Below are positions 3,638-20,000 of a stretch of DNA of 20,000 nt, piece by piece. Origin of the DNA: an uncultured virus (IMG/VR IMGVR_UViG_3300046808_000578) (Duplodnaviria; Heunggongvirae; Uroviricota; Caudoviricetes); IMG/VR virus record IMGVR_UViG_3300046808_000578, one strand, 5' to 3'. The notes under the pieces are model-generated. The model did not search any database and had not been told where the DNA came from. It saw nothing but the letters and a program-made list of their open reading frames with translations. Numbering within the stretch: the first letter of the stretch is position 1; each line of letters begins with the position of its first letter. A program made the position numbers and the translations under genes.

Positions 3638-4055
3638 CGGCGGTATCGCAATCGACGCAGATGGGGTAGTGGGGCATCAAAAACTCCCATCCACTGACGG
3701 GGATCTACTCAACCTGTTATCGGGGTATGGTGGTGAAAAGAAAAAGGCGTATCTAGAAAACATCGTAAAATACGCTGGTACAAATATGCCGTCATCGTCG
3801 ATGGCTGTGTACGCTTCCTCTTGGGGAGTGATCAAAGGGATGCTGATGGCGCTAGGGTTTGAACTGATCTTGGTCAAACCTCAAGATTGGCAGAAGGCTC
3901 TCGGGCTTGGAACTTCCAAGGGGATGAGTAAAACGGAGTGGAAGAACAAACTCAAAGGAGAAGCGCAAAGGTTGTACCCCGGAGCCGATGTAACCTTGGC
4001 TACGGCGGATGCGCTTCTGATGCTACGAGCAGCTAAGAACAACCGGATTGGATGA
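3606..4055 (+). CDS. RuvC-like Holliday junction resolvase
   Basis: N-terminal ILAIDPGANGGIA, AYLE, VKPQDWQK and C-terminal ADALLM acidic residues of the RNase H-fold RuvC family. Confidence 0.85.
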   Translation: MIILAIDPGANGGIAIDADGVVGHQKLPSTDGDLLNLLSGYGGEKKKAYLENIVKYAGTNMPSSSMAVYASSWGVIKGMLMALGFELILVKPQDWQKALGLGTSKGMSKTEWKNKLKGEAQRLYPGADVTLATADALLMLRAAKNNRIG

Positions 4056-6463
4056 AGTCGCTGTACCCGGTACAGGTTGCTCACGCCGATAAGCTAGAGC
4101 AAGCCCTGAGGCAGTGTCGCGCAGCATTGGACGCATCCGAGACTGGGTGCGGTAAAACGGTAGTAGCCGTAGAATTGGCGAACAGATTGAAGCTGCCGAC
4201 AGTGGTGGTTTGCCCAAAGGCAACTATCCCGGCATGGCGTAAAGAGCTCGATCAGAAAGGGCTCAAAGCCACAGTCATCAACTACGAGAAGCTCAAGACT
4301 GGTAATACCCATCTCGGTAGGTTCATGCAACGCCGATGGGAGTGGACCTTCGTCACCAACTCCGAGGCTCTGATTATCTGGGATGAAGTGCAGAGATGCA
4401 TGAGCATGTCGTCTCAGAACAGCAAGATGCTGGTTGGATCCAAGAAACTCTACAACCTGATGCTGTCAGCAACAGCGGCAGAAGATCCTACCGAGATGAA
4501 AGCCCTTGGGTACATCCTCGGGATTCATCAGATCAAGGACTACTGGAACTGGCTCAGAAAACACGGATGCAAACCCAACCCTTGGGGCGGCATGGAGTTC
4601 AAGGGAGGTCCGAAGGAGTTGATGAAAATCCACGATCAGATTTTCAACAACGGGAAAGGATCCCGACTCAAGGTCGAGAACATGCGGGAACACTTCGGGG
4701 AGTCGCAAGTGATCACCGAACCAATCGACTTCGGAGACGAAGGCGAAATCCAGAAGCTGTACGCGGCCATGGATGAGGAGATCACCGAACTGAACTCCCA
4801 GATGCAGGACGACAAGAACGGGGCTGAAGGGTTGGTGAAGCAGCTCAGAGCAAGGCAAGCCGTCGAACTACTCAAGATCCCGTACATCGTCGAAGCCGCC
4901 GAGGAGGCACTGAAGGAAAAACGCAGCGTTGCCATATTCGTCAACTTCAACGCCAGCGTAGACGCTCTGGCCGAAAGGTTGGGGACGGACTGCTTCATCC
5001 GAGGAGGGCAGTCGGACTGCGAACGCCAAAACGCGATACACCAATTCCAGTCAGGAACACGCAGGGTCATCATCTGCAACATCGCCGCTGGTGGTACTGG
5101 GGTATCACTCCACGACGAACAGGGCACCCACCCAAGAACGGCGCTTATCAGCCCAAGCTTCAACGCAAAAGAACTGCTGCAAGTCATGGGACGAGTTCAC
5201 CGGGCTGGGGGAAAAAGCACCTCATTGCAGCGGATCCTGTTCGCCGCAGGTACAATCGAAGAGAAGATTGAGGAGTCCATCCGAAAAAAGCTGAAAAACC
5301 TTGAAATCTTTAACCAAGGAGGCTTGACATCTTCCACTGAAGAACCTAATAAACAGGACACACAAATGCATAACATCGAGACAAAAACAGAACCTGATCA
5401 TCAAAGTAGAGCACACGCAAGGTACTCTCCGTCGAGCCTGACTTACCGCGAAATCTGCCCCGGCTGGGAGAACGACAACGACCCAGACAGAGACACGACT
5501 GCTGCGGACGAAGGTACCCGGTGTCACGAGGCAATGGAGAAAGAGTCCACGGTAGGTCTGACGGAGGAGCAAACGCTCATCGTCGAGATGTGCCTTGGTT
5601 ACATCAACGACTTGAAGACACCCACAACCAAAGTCTTCAAAGAAACCCGCCTGAAGATCTTGGATCAGTTTGGGACTGCTGACTGGGTGCTGCTCAACGG
5701 GACGAAGGCACACCTCGTAGACACCAAGTTTGGCAGAAGGTCTGTACCTGACGCTGAAGTCAACGCACAGCTTCAGGCTTACGCGATTGGAGTGTGGGAC
5801 AAATGGCCAGAGATTGACACCATTACGGTGCACATCCTGTTGCCTAGGAGAGACGAGGTAAGCACCCACACCTTCTCACGTGGTTCGGACTACTCAAATA
5901 TCCGCCTGCGCATTCAGACGATCATCGCCCGCGCAAAACAAGCCCTGCCAGAGTTCTTCAATCCAACCCCATCCGGATGCACCTACTGCGGAAGGAAAGG
6001 TAAGTGCGGAGCCCTTGCAGCCGTGGCCCTCAAAAAAGCAAAAGAGGCAACGCTGGAAAAAGATGAGATTCTGGACCCATCAAAACCAGAACAGATTTCG
6101 GAGTTCCTACGTATTGCGCCGATCCTTGAAGACTGGATCAAGAAGGTTCGAGAAGAAGCCCTGCGTGTGCACTTGTACGAAGGTGTGGAAATCCCGGGCT
6201 TTCGATGCGTAGATCGATCCACTCCGAGAACCATCACAAGCCCAATGGGGGCGTGGTCAATCCTTCAAGACAAGATGTCCTTGGACGACTTCATGGCATC
6301 TGTGTCGCGAGTTTCAATTACGGAGCTCGAAAAAAATTTCTCAGCGTCTGCTGAAAAAGGCCAGAAAGGCAAGAGTAAGCAGCAGCTAGAAAATCTTCTT
6401 AGAGATGCGGGTGTGCTCAAAGAAGAATCAACCATCAAATACCTGAAACCAATCAAAGACTGA
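4052..6463 (+). CDS. SF2 (SNF2-like) helicase fused to a Cas4-like/DUF2800-type PD-(D/E)XK exonuclease
   Basis: Residues 1-425: SETGCGKT, IIWDEVQ, LSAT, QVMGRVHRAG. Residues 439-803: YSPSS..ICPG, GTRCHE, GTAD..LVDTKFG, QLQAYA, CTYCGRKGKC (1+3 Cys pattern). Confidence 0.85.
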   Translation: MKSLYPVQVAHADKLEQALRQCRAALDASETGCGKTVVAVELANRLKLPTVVVCPKATIPAWRKELDQKGLKATVINYEKLKTGNTHLGRFMQRRWEWTFVTNSEALIIWDEVQRCMSMSSQNSKMLVGSKKLYNLMLSATAAEDPTEMKALGYILGIHQIKDYWNWLRKHGCKPNPWGGMEFKGGPKELMKIHDQIFNNGKGSRLKVENMREHFGESQVITEPIDFGDEGEIQKLYAAMDEEITELNSQMQDDKNGAEGLVKQLRARQAVELLKIPYIVEAAEEALKEKRSVAIFVNFNASVDALAERLGTDCFIRGGQSDCERQNAIHQFQSGTRRVIICNIAAGGTGVSLHDEQGTHPRTALISPSFNAKELLQVMGRVHRAGGKSTSLQRILFAAGTIEEKIEESIRKKLKNLEIFNQGGLTSSTEEPNKQDTQMHNIETKTEPDHQSRAHARYSPSSLTYREICPGWENDNDPDRDTTAADEGTRCHEAMEKESTVGLTEEQTLIVEMCLGYINDLKTPTTKVFKETRLKILDQFGTADWVLLNGTKAHLVDTKFGRRSVPDAEVNAQLQAYAIGVWDKWPEIDTITVHILLPRRDEVSTHTFSRGSDYSNIRLRIQTIIARAKQALPEFFNPTPSGCTYCGRKGKCGALAAVALKKAKEATLEKDEILDPSKPEQISEFLRIAPILEDWIKKVREEALRVHLYEGVEIPGFRCVDRSTPRTITSPMGAWSILQDKMSLDDFMASVSRVSITELEKNFSASAEKGQKGKSKQQLENLLRDAGVLKEESTIKYLKPIKD
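5324..5352 (+). promoter_or_regulatory. Candidate internal sigma70-type promoter in the helicase-nuclease linker
   Basis: Perfect TTGACA (5324-5329), 17-bp spacer, TAATAA (5347-5352); in-frame ATG at 5366 after an AC-rich leader. Confidence 0.4.
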
Positions 6464-11548: not shown

Positions 11549-13681
11549 ATGCAAGTTCACACACTACCAAATCTGGTTTCGCAGACAGCGGGGAAAACAA
11601 CGACCCCTATTCAGGCGAACCCAAGACCTACGTTAGCAAATAAAGAAGCGTACCGCAAATGGTGTATTAACGCCAATACTCAGCACGTATTCTACTCCGC
11701 ATGGGAAGGCGTAAACCCCGGATTGCGGATCAGCAAAGCAAACCCGGCAAAACTGCTGCACGGGTTCGTGGCAGACTACGATGCTGACGTGACCGACCAG
11801 ATGATCCTAGACGTGGCAAACAGTGGTGGAATCCTTCCCACATGGAGCTCGCGCACGTTCTCCGGAGGGGCTCGACTCATCTGGGAGTTCGAGGAACCCC
11901 TGCTCATGGACAACCACATCCTTGCGGAACGGTTCATGAAGACCTTGGTCAAGGAACTGAAGGTCAAAAAGCTGCTTCCCGGGTTCGACGAATCCTCAAT
12001 GGAGAGCAGTCAATACTTTGAGGCAGGCACGAACTGGGCTGCTGTAGCTTCAGGGATGCCCATTCCCGTGGATTTGGTGGGTTTGTGGACCCTAGACAGC
12101 GCAACAGGCAAAATCGCGCAGCAGGGAGGCACCGAGATCCCAATCGAGGAGATCGCCGCAGAGGTCGAACGGCAATTCCCGGGACGGTGGGTGGGTGACT
12201 TTGTCGTCGGAGCCCGGGGACCCTTGTACTGGGTACCGGATGGAGTGCAAAGAGTCGGCTGTCAGGTCGGTGATTTTGGAATGATCTGCTACAGTAGCCG
12301 GGCAGACGCGGGTTTTCTCCCGTGGGATAAGATACTTGGTAAATCCTTCGTACAGAAATGGGAGGCAAAGCACATCGGGGGCTACATCGAGAACATGTGG
12401 TACGATGGGAAGATGTACTGGTGGAAGGTGGACGATGTCTGGGTACCCCGGAACAAGGACGACTCCATGATGCACCTCGCAAACCACGGGGTTTCGGTGA
12501 AAACCAACGGCAAAGAGGTCATTTCACGGGCAGGCAAGATCCTTTGTGGGGTGCAGGACGTGCGGAAGGTGGACTACGCCGCCCCGTTGCTGTTTGAAAG
12601 GAACGAGATCGTCGATATCAACGGAGAAAAGGTACTGAACATCGGTCGCCGTGAGGCCCTGATGGAGGCAAACGTGGCGGACCCCGAAAATACCGCGCAT
12701 TTCCCATGGATCTGGGAGTTTATTTCACGAATCTTCGTACAATCTGACGGAGATAACTCGCAGATGGACTATTTTCTCGCATGGTTTCAGCGTTTATGGG
12801 TCTCGGCGAGGAACAAACAGCTCTTCCAAGGGCAAATGCTGGTACTGGCCGGGTCGGCTGGACAGGGCAAAACCTTCATGAGCAGGTGCATCATCGGAGC
12901 CGCCTTGGGTGGGAGTGTGGACGCGAGCGACATCCTCCAAGGAAAGACGAATTTCAATAAGCAAGCTGCCGAAACATGTATATGGAGGGTCGATGACGCC
13001 GCCGGGGCAACGTCTAGGAACGATGCCCTGAAGTTCGGAGACACGTTAAAGCGGCACGTGGCAAACCCGATCGCGGTCTACCACCCAAAGTTCCGGGACG
13101 CAGTCGAATTCCCGTGGAGAGGGCGTATCGTACTGACCTGCAACACAGATCCGAACTCGCTGGCGATCCTGCCGAGCCTCGACAACACGTTCGAGGACAA
13201 GATCATGATGCTCAAGTTCGGGGACTGGATCCCTTCGTTCAAGACAAGCCATGAGCACGAGGCAATGGTGGCCAACGAGCTCCCCTTCTTCCTTGCATGG
13301 CTAAAGCAGTGGCAACCCCCGGCATACGTGATGGGGCAAAACAACAGGTTCGGAGTCCTGAGCTACCACCACAGGGAGCTCGTGGAAGCCTCACAGGAAG
13401 GCGACAGCGGCACGGGACTACTGGAGATCCTCGAGATGTGGAGGGAAGGAGAGGTGGAGGTGGCAAAGTGTGACCCTGAAATCCGGATATCGAGTAGCCA
13501 GCTTCTGGGTCGAATCCGAGACATGGTTTCTGGAGGGGCAGAGTTAATGAGAAATTATTCAACTATTCGGTTAGGGCGCGAATTACGAGCGATTAAGCAG
13601 AGATACAAGCCGCTTACGAAGATCAGTAAGGTTAATGGCATCACAACATACGTGTTCGCAATGAAGGCAAAGCTCGAATAG
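11549..13681 (+). CDS. Primase-helicase (N-terminal primase-polymerase-like domain, C-terminal SF3/D5-like NTPase)
   Basis: N-terminal FVADYD and SRTFSGGARLIW motifs; Walker A LAGSAGQGKT, Walker B WRVDD, motif C VLTCN. Confidence 0.8.
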   Translation: MQVHTLPNLVSQTAGKTTTPIQANPRPTLANKEAYRKWCINANTQHVFYSAWEGVNPGLRISKANPAKLLHGFVADYDADVTDQMILDVANSGGILPTWSSRTFSGGARLIWEFEEPLLMDNHILAERFMKTLVKELKVKKLLPGFDESSMESSQYFEAGTNWAAVASGMPIPVDLVGLWTLDSATGKIAQQGGTEIPIEEIAAEVERQFPGRWVGDFVVGARGPLYWVPDGVQRVGCQVGDFGMICYSSRADAGFLPWDKILGKSFVQKWEAKHIGGYIENMWYDGKMYWWKVDDVWVPRNKDDSMMHLANHGVSVKTNGKEVISRAGKILCGVQDVRKVDYAAPLLFERNEIVDINGEKVLNIGRREALMEANVADPENTAHFPWIWEFISRIFVQSDGDNSQMDYFLAWFQRLWVSARNKQLFQGQMLVLAGSAGQGKTFMSRCIIGAALGGSVDASDILQGKTNFNKQAAETCIWRVDDAAGATSRNDALKFGDTLKRHVANPIAVYHPKFRDAVEFPWRGRIVLTCNTDPNSLAILPSLDNTFEDKIMMLKFGDWIPSFKTSHEHEAMVANELPFFLAWLKQWQPPAYVMGQNNRFGVLSYHHRELVEASQEGDSGTGLLEILEMWREGEVEVAKCDPEIRISSSQLLGRIRDMVSGGAELMRNYSTIRLGRELRAIKQRYKPLTKISKVNGITTYVFAMKAKLE

Positions 13682-13709
13682 CACGTCTGTAATACGAGAT
13701 TATCTGGTT

Positions 13710-13741
13710 AAGCCCATCGCTAAGATGGGCTTTTCCTTTTT
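13710..13741 (+). terminator. Intrinsic terminator closing the replication operon
   Basis: AAGCCCATC-gctaa-GATGGGCTT stem followed by TTCCTTTTT, 28 nt after the primase stop. Confidence 0.8.
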
Positions 13742-13763
13742 CAGGGGAACAGGGTTTCGGGGT

Positions 13764-13996
13764 CCTACAGGCGTAAATGCGTGAAAATGAGGGACTTACG
13801 CCATTTGAGTAGGAAAGTAGGAGAAGGGGGGATTTTCCAGAAACCCTTCTCTGGCTGGCTGGCCCGCTGCTGGCCTGCTGCTGGCCCGCTGCTGCCCTCC
13901 TATATATATATATATACTACTACTACTAATTATACTATACCTACATCCCCTACTTCCCCTACTTATCCGCTCTGGTGGCGGGTTTGTCGGGTGTAG
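13764..13996. repeat. Putative replication origin: inverted GTAGG/CCTAC iterons flanking GC-rich tandem repeats and a (TA)8/(TAC)n tract
   Basis: AGTAGGA x2 (13808, 13816) versus CCTAC x3 (13940, 13949, 13958); CTGGCC(C/T)GCTG x3 (13859-13891); TA repeat 13901-13916; directly downstream of the primase-helicase. Confidence 0.6.
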
Positions 13997-14031
13997 ATGA
14001 AAAAACCGAACCCCTATATCGCCTACCCCAG

Positions 14032-14052
14032 AAGCCCCCTCCGGGGCTTTTT
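14032..14052 (+). terminator. Second intrinsic terminator-like hairpin
   Basis: AAGCCCC-ctcc-GGGGCTT followed by TTT. Confidence 0.55.
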
Positions 14053-14238
14053 GCCTTACGGTGATGGTAAATGTTATGCTTTTGGTTAATAGGTAAAAAA
14101 TACAAAAAATTTTTTCTGACCGTTATCGCAGGTCTGGGCGCACGCGCCCGCTCCCCCGCCCCCGCACCCGTGGTGGGCGCACGCGACAAACCAACCGCGC
14201 GCGACACTACAACGGCCCGGGGCCCCGGCATAGGGGTT

Positions 14239-14267
14239 TTGAGAAGAGGGTGCCGAGGGGCTAGTGA
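14239..14267 (+). promoter_or_regulatory. Candidate promoter for the large structured RNA and downstream gene
   Basis: TTGAGA-17 bp-TAGTGA; same TTGnnA-N16-CTA geometry as the sites at 5324 and 15822. Confidence 0.35.
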
Positions 14268-14274
14268 CCCTGAG

Positions 14275-14785
14275 GCGGCGCGGTGAAAGCGGTGCCTGAT
14301 CTTTGAAATTTAGACCCTGCAGGTAGAGCGGGGCGGCGAGTTGCGAGTGTGGCCAGAGCGCCCCGCCCGAAAGGGCACGAGGGAATAGTAAGTAGGCGCA
14401 CCCATAGCAGACCGCCCCGTGTTCGGACCCGCCGAACCTATCTGCAGACCCCGCTTTCTTGGGGGCGTAAAAGCAAGGAATGGCTCAGACTGGCCAAACG
14501 CTCATCCCGGCACCCATACAAGTTTTAGGTGCAACGGACCGCGAAGACGGGCCCCTAGCGAGGGGGCTTCTAGCGGGGATTCCCGGATGGCGCATTAGCT
14601 GCCCTCTGACAAGGCGCAAACCCTTAACCCTTAACCCGGACCGCGCAAGCGGTCCCTGCAACCTAGGATCAGGCAAACGCGAAGCGAACGCCCCTAGGTG
14701 CCATGCGTTGCATGGCGGCAGTCCGCCCATCCCCTTGGCAAACTGGCAATCCCGCCAGCCCCACGGTTTCCGTGGGCGGACATAC
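14275..14785 (+). ncRNA. Putative large (about 500 nt) highly structured non-coding RNA or leader
   Basis: Many nested and long-range helices, GNRA-capped hairpins (GCCC-GAAA-GGGC, GGACCGC-GCAA-GCGGTCC) and no credible ORF; ends are approximate. Confidence 0.6.
14277..14308 (+). promoter_or_regulatory. boxB-like hairpin plus boxA-like antitermination sequence
   Basis: GGCGC...GTGCC hairpin (14277-14296) followed immediately by TGATCTTTGAAA (14297-14308), resembling rrn leader boxA. Confidence 0.45.
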
Positions 14786-14789
14786 CGTT

Positions 14790-15215
14790 ATGAACATTCT
14801 TGCAAAATTCGACTCCTCCCGCATTCAGACCAACGTGACCAAGTCCGGGAGAATTTCCGGGCAGACCCTCCACCACACGGGGGACGGGTCTACCGGGTTC
14901 GGCACGTTGCGTGCCCAAGGCAAGGCCTTGGGACTCAGCGGGTCCGCTCTCAAGGAGTGGATCTACAGTCAGGCGAGCGGGGACCGCGCCCAAGCGGCGC
15001 GGGAGGAAGCCCGCATCCTGTTCAATCTGGGTCTCGACCGGGGGCTTGTCCCCCAGAAGACGCAGGTGAAGAGCAATGGGGGTGCCGTGTTCACGCTCAT
15101 TCCAGAGGCGAAAGCCCCGGCCACCCGTACCACCACCTGCGTGGACCCCGCCGCCATGGTGGCGGCGATGACGCCGGAACAGCGCGCCGCCCTTCTGGCG
15201 GCGCTGCAGGCTTAG
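14790..15215 (+). CDS. Hypothetical protein (141 aa)
   Basis: ATG at 14790 just after the structured region; protein-like composition, C-terminal AMTPEQRAALLAAL helix; followed by a hairpin. Confidence 0.7.
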   Translation: MNILAKFDSSRIQTNVTKSGRISGQTLHHTGDGSTGFGTLRAQGKALGLSGSALKEWIYSQASGDRAQAAREEARILFNLGLDRGLVPQKTQVKSNGGAVFTLIPEAKAPATRTTTCVDPAAMVAAMTPEQRAALLAALQA

Positions 15216-15220
15216 TCGAA

Positions 15221-15261
15221 TCGCCCCGAAAGGGGCGACTAGGGGAGTTGACCTACCCCTA
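15221..15261. terminator. Hairpins between convergent genes
   Basis: TCGCCCC-GAAA-GGGGCGA (15221-15238) and TAGGGG...CCCCTA (15240-15261); no clear U-tract. Confidence 0.4.
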
Positions 15262-15792
15262 CTGATGAGACAGGTCAACAGAGTCAGGGGAGCGGTTCTC
15301 CAAACCGTTCTCCGCGTAGGAGTCCGTCTCTGTCGGGACGGATTCGGGACGGATTTCTAGGACGGCGGGCTCCGCCTCCCCTAGGAGCGCAAGGTTGACG
15401 ATTGTACGCCCTTGGGCGTCCGCGTCCTCCAATCCGGCTGCCCGGCGTGCAATCTTGTCCGCCGTCTCCAAGTCCCGCCAGTTCTTCGGCGCGGGCACCT
15501 TTGCCTCCCCAATCGCTCGGGACGCGAGGTCAAACATGGCGGATCGGTGGCGCTCGCCCCGCTCTGCCCATGATTCCCGAACAAGGGCGGACAATTCCCT
15601 TGTCCGCTCGAGCTGGACTTTGTCCGGAAGCGGTTTTTCGGGAGCCCGCTCCCAGCCTTCCCTACGGGAACGCTTCTGGACGGCATCGTATTTGATGCCG
15701 AATTTCTCGGCGGCTTGTCCGATGGACAGTCCGCCCACCATCACGGCTGTCCGGATGGCTTGCCAGTCTACTGGTAAAGGTTTTCCTGCCAT
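15259..15792 (-). CDS. Terminase small subunit-like HTH protein
   Basis: VDWQAIRTAVMVGGLSIGQAAEKFGIKYDAVQKRSRREGW matches the N-terminal HTH of many TerS proteins; helical middle region ending ARRAAGL; acidic tail. Confidence 0.65.
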   Translation of the reverse strand: MAGKPLPVDWQAIRTAVMVGGLSIGQAAEKFGIKYDAVQKRSRREGWERAPEKPLPDKVQLERTRELSALVRESWAERGERHRSAMFDLASRAIGEAKVPAPKNWRDLETADKIARRAAGLEDADAQGRTIVNLALLGEAEPAVLEIRPESVPTETDSYAENGLENRSPDSVDLSHQ

Positions 15793-15821
15793 TGCACCCT
15801 TTTACCCTGTCACCCGGGTGC

Positions 15822-15850
15822 TTGGCAACCCCTTTGGGGGAAGCTAAGCC
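15822..15850 (+). promoter_or_regulatory. Candidate promoter for the small-gene cluster
   Basis: TTGGCA-17 bp-TAAGCC in the divergent intergenic region, followed by hairpin CTGTCCG-cttc-CGGACAG and an AC-rich leader. Confidence 0.3.
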
Positions 15851-15908
15851 CCCTCTGTCCGCTTCCGGACAGCCTTTGTCCGCAACAACCAACCAACCAA
15901 CACACACC

Positions 15909-16235
15909 ATGAACACCGACCGCTTTTTCACCCCTGAAGTTACGTGGGTCCATGAGTTAATCCTGCGTGGCCGCACCCTTGACGGGTGCCACTATCTGGT
16001 CTGCGACCAGTTCACACCAGAGGAGGTAAACTCCTTTTGTCAGCAACTTCCACGTCACCGGGCGCGCCGCGTGAAGCGGCTTCTGCGGAAGATGGCCAGA
16101 CCCGTGTGGGCATCCACACGGAGCGGCGTGTGCTCGCACGCCGAGGTTGCGGGGGATGACCTGATCGAGGTCATCCAGCCCGGGCTCACATACCTCCAAG
16201 CGGAGGAGAACTGGACGTCTATTCTGTACTCCTGA
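15909..16235 (+). CDS. Hypothetical early-region protein
   Basis: ATG at 15909 after a (CAAC)n-CACACACC leader. Confidence 0.65.
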   Translation: MNTDRFFTPEVTWVHELILRGRTLDGCHYLVCDQFTPEEVNSFCQQLPRHRARRVKRLLRKMARPVWASTRSGVCSHAEVAGDDLIEVIQPGLTYLQAEENWTSILYS

Positions 16236-16251
16236 GTTAACACAACCAACC

Positions 16252-16485
16252 ATGAACACAACCAACGCATACACAACCCCGACTACGGGGTTGTTTGTCA
16301 TCGTAACCGGGGGCGCTGCCCCACTGGAGTTTCCCCCGGGCTACCCGGCCCGTGTTGAGGATGGTCGCCTCATCGTCCATGACGAGGACCGTGGCGAAGC
16401 CCGTGTCGTCCTCGTCGTCCCTGAGGGGGGATGGTGCTCACCCTCTGCGTGGCGGAACCAACCAACACAACCAACACAACCATGA
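16252..16485 (+). CDS. Hypothetical early-region protein
   Basis: ATG after AACACAACCAACC leader; ATGA overlap with the next gene. Confidence 0.6.
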   Translation: MNTTNAYTTPTTGLFVIVTGGAAPLEFPPGYPARVEDGRLIVHDEDRGEARVVLVVPEGGWCSPSAWRNQPTQPTQP

Positions 16486-16715
16486 ACAAATACCAAAAGC
16501 GTATCACGTACCCAAACGGGTACACCGCATCCATCGTCTGCCACTCGTTCTCCTACGGAGGGCACGAGGGCCTCTTCGAGGTCGCCGTGCTCGTAGGGGA
16601 GTCCCTCCATTACGACAACCCTGTAGCCCGGGGAGACGTCCTCGGGAATCTGGACTTCGCCGAAGTCGCCGAAGTCCTTGCGAGGATTGCTGCCCTGCCG
16701 CCAGTCAACCCCTAA
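16482..16715 (+). CDS. Small conserved phage protein (YPNGYTASIV...SYGGHEGLFEVAVL type)
   Basis: ATG at 16482 after (CAACACAAC)x2; I recognise the motif from other phage hypothetical proteins. Confidence 0.8.
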   Translation: MNKYQKRITYPNGYTASIVCHSFSYGGHEGLFEVAVLVGESLHYDNPVARGDVLGNLDFAEVAEVLARIAALPPVNP

Positions 16716-16726
16716 CCCAACACGCC

Positions 16727-16897
16727 ATGAACACAACCCCATCGCCCACCGCATCCCGCCTCCTTGCCCTCATGGTCAAGGGGGGCCACCGGCTCACCGT
16801 ACACAGCAACAGGTTCCCCCGCCGGGGGAAGCACTACGTCCACGCCGTCGCAAAGGCGGCGGGCGTCCTGTCCCCCGCACCGAGGAGGGGCGAATGA
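16727..16897 (+). CDS. Small basic hypothetical protein (56 aa)
   Basis: ATG at 16727 after CCCAACACGCC leader; ATGA overlap with the next gene. Confidence 0.55.
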   Translation: MNTTPSPTASRLLALMVKGGHRLTVHSNRFPRRGKHYVHAVAKAAGVLSPAPRRGE

Positions 16898-17103
16898 GTC
16901 GCCCGAAACCAACGCCGCAGCAGGTAGCGGAGTGGGTAGTGGACGCCCTGCTGCAAGTCTCAAACGCCCCCGAGACGGGGGATCAAGACGAGTTCCTCCG
17001 GGGACTCGTCAACCTCGGAAGTTTGGCTTGGTACCTTGCCGGGCCGGATACGAGATACATCAACGAAACTTGGAACGTAGTAATGAAAGCTTATGAGAAG
17101 TGA
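16894..17103 (+). CDS. Hypothetical protein (69 aa, MSRPKPTPQQ...)
   Basis: ATGA coupling, preceded by GAGGAGG. Confidence 0.6.
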   Translation: MSRPKPTPQQVAEWVVDALLQVSNAPETGDQDEFLRGLVNLGSLAWYLAGPDTRYINETWNVVMKAYEK

Positions 17104-17236
17104 ATTGGTAGACGAACACAACGCCGCCCTACGAAGGGCAAGGGCCCTCGCCCGGTTTGACTGGTGTCTGGACCGAGTCCTGTGGATGGGACTCGGTATG
17201 TTGGCAATGGTGATCGCGGAGATTCTGTTCCTATGA
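17093..17236 (+). CDS. Small membrane protein (47 aa; not in ORF track)
   Basis: MRSELVDEHNAALRRARALARFDWCLDRVLWMGLGMLAMVIAEILFL; overlaps both neighbours; C-terminal hydrophobic helix. Confidence 0.55.
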   Translation: MRSELVDEHNAALRRARALARFDWCLDRVLWMGLGMLAMVIAEILFL

Positions 17237-17331
17237 TCGCCAACCTCTTCGCGTTGTCCGGCCCCATCGGGATCGCCGGACTCATCGTATTGGCAATGTG
17301 GCTCCGTGAAACCGGAGCCGCGTTACTCTGA
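17233..17331 (+). CDS. Small membrane peptide (32 aa; not in ORF track)
   Basis: ATGA coupling; MIANLFALSGPIGIAGLIVLAMWLRETGAALL; stop lies inside the CTGAAACCCTG repeat. Confidence 0.5.
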   Translation: MIANLFALSGPIGIAGLIVLAMWLRETGAALL

Positions 17332-17367
17332 AACCCTGAAACCTTGATTAGAAACAAAAAACATATG
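17328..17367 (+). repeat. Intergenic repeat copy 1 (CTGAAACCCTG plus 28-bp leader)
   Basis: AACCTTGATTAGAAACAAAAAACATATG at 17340-17367 is identical to 18119-18146. Confidence 0.9.
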
Positions 17368-17679
17368 GAAACACCACAAGCAATACCAACCGAACTCATG
17401 GAAAAACTCCGCGCCGCTGGCGTGGAATCCTTCACCCTCTCGTTCTGGGGAGGTTCGGACGAGGGATACCTGTACCTCGTCGGAATACCGTATGAACTGG
17501 AGAAGGCGGTCGAGGACTGGGCATGGCGGGCATACCAGTACTCCGGTGCCGGGGACGGAGAAAACTATGGTGACGACATCACCTACAACCTCAAGGATGG
17601 AACGGTTAAGTGCTCCGACTGGTACATGGAGAGGCAAGAGGGGGACACAGAAACCCATATGCTGGAGGGGCTGGAATGA
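17365..17679 (+). CDS. DUF6878-like acidic protein
   Basis: LRAAGVESFTLSFWGGSDEG motif; adjacent to a DUF6915-like gene, a pairing I recall from other mobile elements. Confidence 0.6.
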   Translation: METPQAIPTELMEKLRAAGVESFTLSFWGGSDEGYLYLVGIPYELEKAVEDWAWRAYQYSGAGDGENYGDDITYNLKDGTVKCSDWYMERQEGDTETHMLEGLE

Positions 17680-18044: not shown

Positions 18045-18146
18045 AACCCTGAACCCCTGCATCCCTGCGGCCCAGTGTCACAGGGGTGCAGCCTTCAGGG
18101 CTTAGCTCATGGTGAGCTAACCTTGATTAGAAACAAAAAACATATG
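18036..18146 (+). repeat. Intergenic repeat copy 2 (long hairpin, short hairpin and 28-bp leader)
   Basis: AAGCCCTGAA/TTCAGGGCTT (18036-18045/18094-18103), inner CTGCATCCCTG/CAGGGGTGCAG, then TTAGCTCA-tgg-TGAGCTAA. Confidence 0.85.
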
Positions 18147-18554: not shown

Positions 18555-19040
18555 ATGATCAGAAACCTTAAAGAGTTCTTGGCTTACCTCGACGCTGATA
18601 CCCCGTGGGACGCGGGGCTTATACTGTACGACAAGTACGAGTGCGGGCCGTGGTTGACATTCGTTGGGGGCTCGGTCCCCTTTGATTACAAGTGGGCCAG
18701 CAGCCTGACTGAGTGCGATGGAGTGCAAGTCGGATCCATCGTGGAAGGATCCGATGCCGAGGTGACTCGGTCTCCGCTTTGGTTTCCGTTCAGCCGCCAG
18801 CTTTTTGAAGCCTACGTGCAGGACATCAATGACGAGGCTTGCCAACTGTGGGATGAAGCGAATGAGTTGACAGAGGAGTCAACACCCAGTATTAGAAAAG
18901 AACTGAACAAGTACGCATTAACGTACCTGTTGAGTAACCTCGGAGCCCCCGGGGTGATGAAAGACCTGAAAGGGTACGCCCCCAATTCCACCCGGAAGGG
19001 TATTGAATCGGAGCTCTGGGGCATGATCAACGAAGCATAA
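18555..19040 (+). CDS. Hypothetical protein (161 aa)
   Basis: ATG after ACAACACAACAACCT leader; KYECGPW and VGSIVEGSDAEV motifs. Confidence 0.75.
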   Translation: MIRNLKEFLAYLDADTPWDAGLILYDKYECGPWLTFVGGSVPFDYKWASSLTECDGVQVGSIVEGSDAEVTRSPLWFPFSRQLFEAYVQDINDEACQLWDEANELTEESTPSIRKELNKYALTYLLSNLGAPGVMKDLKGYAPNSTRKGIESELWGMINEA

Positions 19041-19057
19041 AACAACAACAACACACC

Positions 19058-20000
19058 ATGGAAGAACACCAACAACCCGCCCTCGTGGCGGATAGCGTGA
19101 TGGTCCGCGTTACCTGCGGGTCATTCAACCCGCAGGTAAAACACAAAGGCGAGTCCGCCAAAGTCGTTGCATCAGCAGCGGCATCGAAGGACGCCGCCCG
19201 CGTCATCTGCAGCCCGATCCCCAAGGAATGGGCGCAACCCTTGGAGAACATCCAAGCCCGCGCCCGTGCTTGGCGTGATCGCCATGCCTCCCCGTGGGAC
19301 GGGGACTGGTACATCATGAATGCGGAACTCTTGCCGGAGTTCCTCGATGGCATGAATACCATCGTGGACGAGTTCAGGGCAGTGCTCGCCAATCAGATGG
19401 ATGAGTACCCGAACATCGTTGCTAAGGCAAAGGCCACCCGCATGGGGGGCCTGTACCGGGACGACCAGTATCCCTCCGCTGAGGTGGCAGCGGGGAGATG
19501 GGTTCTTGACTGGGGTGTGGAGCCCCTGAACCTGCAGAAACCGGACTTCAGGGTCCAGTGCTCTGCGTCCCAGCTAAACCAGTTGCGGACCAAGTACGAG
19601 ATCCGCATCAAGGACAGCCTCAAGGTTCTTGAGGCTAGTCTGTACGATAGGTTGGCCAAGGCAGCGGGGGCTTGTTGCATCCCGCTCCGCCCGGATGCCG
19701 AGCGAATAAAGTCTAGCGTGTTCGATACGCTAGGTGAACTGGTTGACATGGAGCCGCAGTTGAACCTCGGTAATGCTCCTGAGGTACATGAGGCTTACCG
19801 GAGGGCCGACAAGATTTTCTTGTCCCGCCCTGTGAACACCCTTCGGGACGACGACAATCTCCGGGCTTCGGTGTACCAAGCGGGCATCAAGTTCGTCACC
19901 AGTCTCCCGGGGTGGGAGGATGCCCTCTCCAATTCCAGATTCGTGCCCATCATGCCGGATCTGGTCAAGGTAGCGGGGCCCACCCCCGAGCCCACACCTG
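19058..20000 (+). CDS. DUF3150-like phage protein (partial, runs off the right edge; not in ORF track)
   Basis: Manual translation from ATG 19058 (MEEHQQPALVADSVMVRV...HASPWDGDWYIM...MGGLYRDDQYPSAE...DFRV) appears open to the window end; family recalled from the PW and G.LY....YP motifs. Confidence 0.65.
   Translation, partial: MEEHQQPALVADSVMVRVTCGSFNPQVKHKGESAKVVASAAASKDAARVICSPIPKEWAQPLENIQARARAWRDRHASPWDGDWYIMNAELLPEFLDGMNTIVDEFRAVLANQMDEYPNIVAKAKATRMGGLYRDDQYPSAEVAAGRWVLDWGVEPLNLQKPDFRVQCSASQLNQLRTKYEIRIKDSLKVLEASLYDRLAKAAGACCIPLRPDAERIKSSVFDTLGELVDMEPQLNLGNAPEVHEAYRRADKIFLSRPVNTLRDDDNLRASVYQAGIKFVTSLPGWEDALSNSRFVPIMPDLVKVAGPTPEPTP

Follow-up and report, generated by a model that had tools for sequence, protein, structure and literature searches.

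The window analysed here, a 20,000-nucleotide stretch of DNA from an uncultured virus of the Caudoviricetes, carries the gene set of a temperate phage, which includes an integrase, a Holliday-junction resolvase, a helicase-exonuclease, a DNA polymerase, a primase and the small subunit of terminase (TerS). The helicase and exonuclease domains are joined in a single 803-aa open reading frame (ORF) at 4052-6463, and identical 27-nt stretches at 17341-17367 and 18120-18146 end in the start codons of two early-type genes. The habitat was freshwater in all 19 of the sequencing runs that contain the stretch at a share of at least 0.37. Because a named primase homologue comes from an Opitutaceae genome and a TerS homologue was found in a genome from the phylum of a record titled Verrucomicrobiae, the host of this phage is probably a member of the Verrucomicrobiota.

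The subject of this study is a gene-free region of about 540 bases that lies directly before the first early-type gene, with the primase gene upstream and a convergent TerS gene downstream (Table 1). Directly after the primase gene, positions 13812-13958 contain three 11-nt tandem repeats, an AT-rich run and a 22-nt imperfect inverted repeat, an arrangement that is origin-like. The conserved DNA motif that precedes the gene-free region has a single match in the window and none in 200 shuffles, and TerS or primase was present in the locus for 13 of its 16 viral matches and for 4 of its 34 metagenome matches. Since TerS lies nearby, this motif is possibly a genome-end or packaging signal.

Table 1. 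Features of the locus between the primase and terminase small subunit genes, in window coordinates
Feature	Positions	Strand	Basis
Primase-like gene, upstream landmark	11549-13681	+	PHROG primase matches, DUF5906
Terminator-like hairpin after the primase gene	13710-13732		Terminator scan
Conserved DNA motif (A/T run, then GTGGTGG element), candidate signal	14106-14176	+	Common to many relatives near TerS
Leader 5' segment with small GAAA-capped hairpin (about 14274-14295) just before boxA, the rRNA order	14250-14295	+	Fold
boxA antitermination site	14296-14310	+	Host-phylum matrix and published consensus
Core domain 1, predicted stable nested multi-helix arm	14312-14450	+	z -4.6; pair probabilities 0.99-1.0
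Proposed crossing helices (14345-14364 with 14462-14503), candidate pseudoknot	14345-14503	+	Complementarity
Core domain 2, weakly defined	14451-14606	+	
A/C-rich single-stranded linker; relatives have similar linkers	14617-14637	+	
3' hairpin cluster, ending in start-codon-proximal hairpin 14721-14730/14772-14781	14638-14781	+	z -4.0
First early-type gene (141 aa), without a known family or fold	14790-15215	+	11 homologues at 57-99%
Predicted type II hammerhead, U15.1-A16.1 variant, with 8-bp loop I-tail pseudoknot	15215-15279	+	Stems and core letters checked
Terminase small subunit gene, transcribed towards the leader	15259-15792	-	phrog_1206, E 2e-07

The original prediction, which was made from the sequence alone, had described this region as a large, undescribed structured RNA devoid of a credible ORF, and its non-coding status is borne out. 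An overlapping ORF of 261 aa has a flat GC content by codon position (0.64/0.62/0.62 versus 0.62/0.53/0.81 in the 141-aa gene), has no Pfam match and undergoes changes of frame in relatives. RNase P, tmRNA and group I or group II introns gave no match with Rfam models or ARAGORN, searches that very divergent members of these families could escape. The Rfam covariance search of the stretch returned nothing near a gathering score, the GOLLD and ROOL models were without a match at E values up to 5 or 10, and ARAGORN reported no gene in the stretch and, across the window, no tRNA. The ends of the RNA contig described below were at one point read as alanine-tRNA-like or as tmRNA, an interpretation that was abandoned. 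A search for homologues of the core yielded none in any of the collections searched. For example, blastn against annotated phages found no homologue, 93 matches of the boxA pattern in viral contigs and 28 matches of a 3' hairpin pattern included none that extend into core homology, and none of 74 matches of the upstream motif was accompanied by a window-like RNA. A DNA search of 401 genomes of the host phylum gave only 10 short matches of 20-55 nt, and a covariance model of the window core (R3), run on 49 sources and 150 genomes, recovered neither a homologue nor a relative. A literature search, with supplementary tables of candidate RNAs and most subscription papers outside its scope, found no description of these RNAs.

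The helices named in the original prediction are indeed present in the sequence; eleven lie where stated or expected, and in addition GCCATGC/GCATGGC falls at 14700-14706/14710-14716. Their number is ordinary for GC-rich shuffles: Watson-Crick stems of at least 6, 7, 8 and 9 bp number 44, 16, 5 and 2 in 14250-14790 versus shuffle means of 41.1, 11.0, 3.1 and 1.0, and these counts were reached by 36, 12, 16 and 28 of 100 shuffles, respectively. As a whole, the region folds modestly better than its shuffles on the plus strand (z -2.41, with 0 of 100 shuffles as good) and has a z of -0.35 on the minus strand. When the window was divided into 133 tiles of 150 nt, all four that cover 14251-14850 ranked outside the top 15; the strongest local folds, with z about -5, are at 18901-19200 and 15751-15900, the first two of these tiles being mostly coding. 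Fold stability within the region is concentrated in 14312-14451 and 14592-14791. In a fixed-step scan of 140-nt segments the one starting at 14312 had a z of -4.6, three of the four with starts at 14592-14652 had z values of -4.15, -3.51 and -4.83 (the fourth, -1.85), and eleven segments starting at 14352-14552 ranged from -0.83 to +2.74, the middle thus folding no better than shuffles. The nested helices 14317-14447, 14328-14420 and 14421-14437 are those with the near-certain pair probabilities of domain 1. A helix closing the ends of the RNA (14255-14266/14593-14606) appears only when this piece is folded alone (z -1.89) and was rejected, its probability being below 0.02 in a longer context. 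Complementarity of the crossing set was confirmed in the sequence; the folding program scores nested pairs only, which places these helices outside its scoring, and a pseudoknot formed by them is possible. The label "pseudoknot-rich" that had been given to the stretch is unproven.

The most informative feature of the leader is a boxA, which is absent from the first reading. Using a matrix derived from 15 16S leaders of the host phylum, this site is the top site in the window at 19.1 bits versus 12.8 bits for the next. The leaders came from a search of 61 Verrucomicrobiota genomes, among which 15 of the 20 with a 16S gene have a boxA-like site no more than 700 nt upstream, with three surplus copies from a single genome and one fragment excluded. 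Because the seed pattern for the matrix was chosen from the phage site itself, the score is partly circular, and for the same reason the published Bacillus subtilis boxA consensus constitutes the independent support: 12 of 13 letters of the site agree with that consensus, which is shown to bind NusB in PMC13753749. A small hairpin is predicted directly upstream of boxA and is the small hairpin nearest to the site. Among 14 relatives the best leader boxA site ranks first to third in its own locus in 8, of which two have loci of less than 3 kb and five are close kin, and no top-three site is present in the remaining 6, which are L103, L106 and L110 of group B (defined below), L117, L120 and L126. 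Inspection by eye shows a boxA variant with an insertion behind a small hairpin in L103 and L110. The window has an 11-bp leader-trailer helix, which 5 of 200 shuffles equal and which was not seen in 9 of 10 relatives. The long helix over boxA beats shuffles in only 2 of 11 leaders, those of the window and L110, and does not appear to be conserved. The scan of the window for a promoter of the leader transcript found none. According to PMC10250234, the rRNA complex requires boxA and needs no other signal, and PMC4807359 states that boxA counteracts termination by Rho within a non-coding 5' insert of 567 bp. The latter source further contends that Nus factors have a main role at rRNA other than antitermination, and help with folding is therefore an equal candidate for the role of boxA here.

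A hint of a transcript comes from one of four runs, out of 21 listed, that were aligned to 12000-17500. This run, X14, is a lake metatranscriptome and the only RNA run among them; another run, X20, has a small share and was left out. X14 yielded 8 pieces, all at least 99% alike to the window. The contig at 14259-14603 has a depth of 53.9 versus 2.2-7.5 for the seven other pieces, a contrast that is a hint of high abundance of this RNA and not a measurement, as contigs cannot give level, strand or ends and DNA is possibly present. Two of the low-depth pieces lie inside the stretch that was used for choosing the run, so selection alone is insufficient to account for the contrast. The contig ends in adapter at 14603, and there is no joint in the run; positions 12000-13287 are without cover, and the uncovered stretch 14604-14731 was given no evidential weight. 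Additionally, a strain contig from run X16 differs from the window at 22 positions in 12394-14793, only 2 of which are in the RNA. These 2 differences fall in 14259-14793, as compared to 7 in 14020-14135, and both break predicted pairs: G14322A affects helix 14317-14447, and T14262C affects the helix that would close the ends.

Alignment of the primase identified 46 viral loci at 31-42% identity, 14 of which have TerS downstream on the opposite strand as in the window, and two further loci (L173 and L198) were added through the upstream DNA motif. Ten relative loci have the primase, the conserved motif, a long leader, a small first gene and TerS, as in the window. Their gene-free leaders measure about 680-920 nt from the motif to the small first gene and form two groups. 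Outside of these ten, the leaders of L119 and L120 are about 570-590 nt long and fit neither group model, and that of L117 is short.

Group B contains an RNA family of about 200 nt (L103:14030-14229, L106:14842-15045, L110:14240-14445, L173:630-827 and L198:736-937) with no Rfam match in the loci scanned and with a possible H-type pseudoknot at its end; in L106, L173 and L198 this core is preceded by a further 150-250 nt of apparent structure. Changes on both sides occur in 21 of the 50 pairs of this core, a level reached by 0 of 500 shuffles and approached by no slid control, where the structure was derived from the same five sequences and kinship inflates such tests. This covarying core folds at a z of only -2.1, so a modest z is normal for a real RNA at this position. 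Group A has a second candidate family of 300-430 nt (L105:15278-15600, L107:15969-16398, L108:13565-13870, L109:13500-13903 and L111:13472-13777) with invariant blocks, large variable inserts and no Rfam match in the three loci scanned. Its core aligns poorly; across 3 of its 5 sequences, 5 of the 25 pairs in the 3' hairpins covary. The cores of the relatives carry inserts of 100 nt or more as well as invariant unpaired letters. By eye they resemble RNase P T-loops and intron cores, a likeness without Rfam support. Rfam searches of six relative loci returned no match except for a tRNA.

The models of the group A and group B leader RNAs (R1 and R2) find only their own groups and do not match the window, for which the best scores were 3.4 and 6.3 bits with filters off; the models rest on 5, 3 and 1 distinct sequences, with which remote homology could be missed. 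Since the models from relatives do not match the window core, this position appears to be occupied by three or more distinct RNAs. The layout is thus common to these loci, and their core RNAs appear to differ. That the A/C-rich linker serves as a telomere-like template was considered and rejected, as G-poor runs of this kind lie ahead of many genes in the window.

In the window the leader is followed first by the 141-aa gene, and the same is probably true of one group of relatives, judging from a weak profile match. In group A the first gene has a weak match to the profile of the 141-aa family (E 0.0018, probability 15%), and that of group B has none (E 0.89). The protein lacks a PHROG or Pfam match, and no locus for it was found in viral, metagenome or genome contigs or in annotated phages. 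Fold searches gave no clear match (Z of 3.7 or lower, no E below 0.001), a result that does not by itself establish a new fold, and its atlas matches were 0.82 or lower. Upstream extensions of the homologous proteins read through the start-codon hairpin 14721-14730/14772-14781. One of 9 such extensions, P0021, is the sole one with changes in the 5' arm, and both of its forced changes face forced changes in the 3' arm that are compatible with pairing, as deduced from protein sequence only.

Taken together, these gene-free bases are most likely an uncatalogued folded RNA that begins with boxA, and we are confident that the stretch contains a real folded RNA. The proposal of an undescribed large phage RNA is likely to be right in view of the missing Rfam and ARAGORN matches, the abundance hint from one run and the covarying RNAs at the same place in relatives; the list of helices from which it started is itself no evidence. 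Our full reading, which we regard as evenly poised between true and false, is that an rRNA-style antiterminated early leader also yields a stable RNA of about 300-350 nt. Host RNA polymerase would start near 14250, and boxA, which is present in sequence and whose function is predicted, would load NusB and S10 with an rRNA-type antitermination complex. The polymerase could then escape termination by Rho while crossing about 480 untranslated bases and, later, the antisense strand of TerS, which is likewise untranslated. A folded RNA of about 300 nt behind boxA may outlast the mRNA as a discrete species, as X14 hints, with the linker and the hairpin cluster separating it from the first gene and the hammerhead presumably trimming the message after the 141-aa gene. 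Such a discrete RNA would most likely target machinery of the host or the phage in trans at an early stage of infection, a mode of action that is also suspected for other large phage RNAs. A more far-reaching version, which we put forward as speculation and think doubtful, is that in this phage family an exchangeable RNA cassette heads the first transcript, with an rRNA-style boxA placed before any of three or more large RNAs that are uncatalogued and unrelated to one another. Each of these would be made like ribosomal RNA, released in abundance as a free species and used early in infection as an effector consisting of RNA alone, directed for example at the ribosomes, Nus factors or defence systems of the host.

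Of the competing explanations, a purely cis-acting mRNA leader survives best and is a real, if rather improbable, possibility. According to this explanation boxA and the folds set the speed of transcription, shield the 5' end or control translation of the 141-aa gene, perhaps with the encoded protein bound to them, and the abundant fragment is a stable decay product, 5' fragments of structured leaders being known often to persist. It would account for a leader that is immediately upstream of the first gene, where the scan showed no intervening terminator, for a start-codon hairpin that is kept with matched changes and for the covariation of the group A equivalents of this hairpin. It does not sit well with relatives that have a probably related first gene and yet have non-matching cores, nor with cores that take inserts of at least 100 nt, nor with a length of 300-450 nt that far exceeds the approximately 65 nt of HK022 put (PMC8632103). 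We consider it unlikely that only boxA and the 3' hairpins are functional, with the core being a GC-rich spacer near the genome end that contains chance helices. Stem counts that equal those of shuffles, a middle that folds no better and the lack of a core homologue in any search are what such a spacer predicts, whereas the stability of domain 1, the excess contig depth over exactly this part and its fewer strain differences argue against it, and the group B core demonstrates that a modest z is normal. A core that is a ribozyme, or the relic of one, processing or capping the early transcript is very unlikely, for its size, possible pseudoknot, accompanying hammerhead and the invariant unpaired letters of the relatives' cores are set against the lack of an Rfam match (ribozymes and introns included), of an interrupted host gene and of a joint in the RNA run.

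The reading that we prefer, an antiterminated leader that also yields a stable RNA, has parallels in several known systems. Like the leader antiterminator of rRNA operons (boxB-boxA-boxC, Nus/rrnTAC), the window has a small predicted hairpin and then boxA at the head of a long untranslated RNA. It differs in being borne by a phage, in that boxA leads into an uncharacterised RNA plus mRNA, in that no boxC was identified and in that its leader-trailer helix does not appear to be conserved. Lambdoid nut/N and HK022 put are likewise cis signals in an early-operon leader with a small first gene behind, whereas in the window the hairpin precedes boxA, which is the rRNA order (PMC8632103). The leader is also approximately eight times the size of put, and in contrast to lambdoid N the 141-aa protein is predicted to be folded and has no family match. 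To our knowledge, only a small number of large orphan RNAs have been described from phages, and the function of each is still unsettled. GOLLD and ROOL, as portrayed in PMC12286853, share with the window RNA that they are large, folded, phage-borne, possibly abundant and without an assigned function. The window RNA differs from them in being about half their size, in matching no Rfam model, in having no tRNA in the window and in sitting in an mRNA leader. The locus would add up to three candidate RNA families that are tied to one genomic slot behind an rRNA-type boxA. It also opens two questions to experiment: can phages make use of the antitermination complex of host rRNA with no N protein, and is a functional RNA the earliest product of such a phage? 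The short leaders of L117 and L126 offer natural controls.

The predicted hammerhead overlaps the stop codon of the 141-aa gene and has all three stems, the core letters CUGANGA and GAA, and H17, with the canonical A15.1-U16.1 pair replaced by U-A; its predicted cut site is after 15239. It was not detected in the Rfam search. PMC3088659 describes type II hammerheads in prophages and reports that the U15.1-A16.1 variant is active, though slower. As in these prophage hammerheads, stem II is open, the core is full, a loop I-tail pseudoknot is present and a small phage gene is adjacent; they have A-U at 15.1-16.1 where the window has U-A. A loose end of X16 contains a related hammerhead sequence with the canonical letters. 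At the equivalent position after the first gene, a conserved hairpin with a fixed internal loop is found in L108 (about 14350-14390), L111 (about 14260-14300) and L120 (about 15705-15750).
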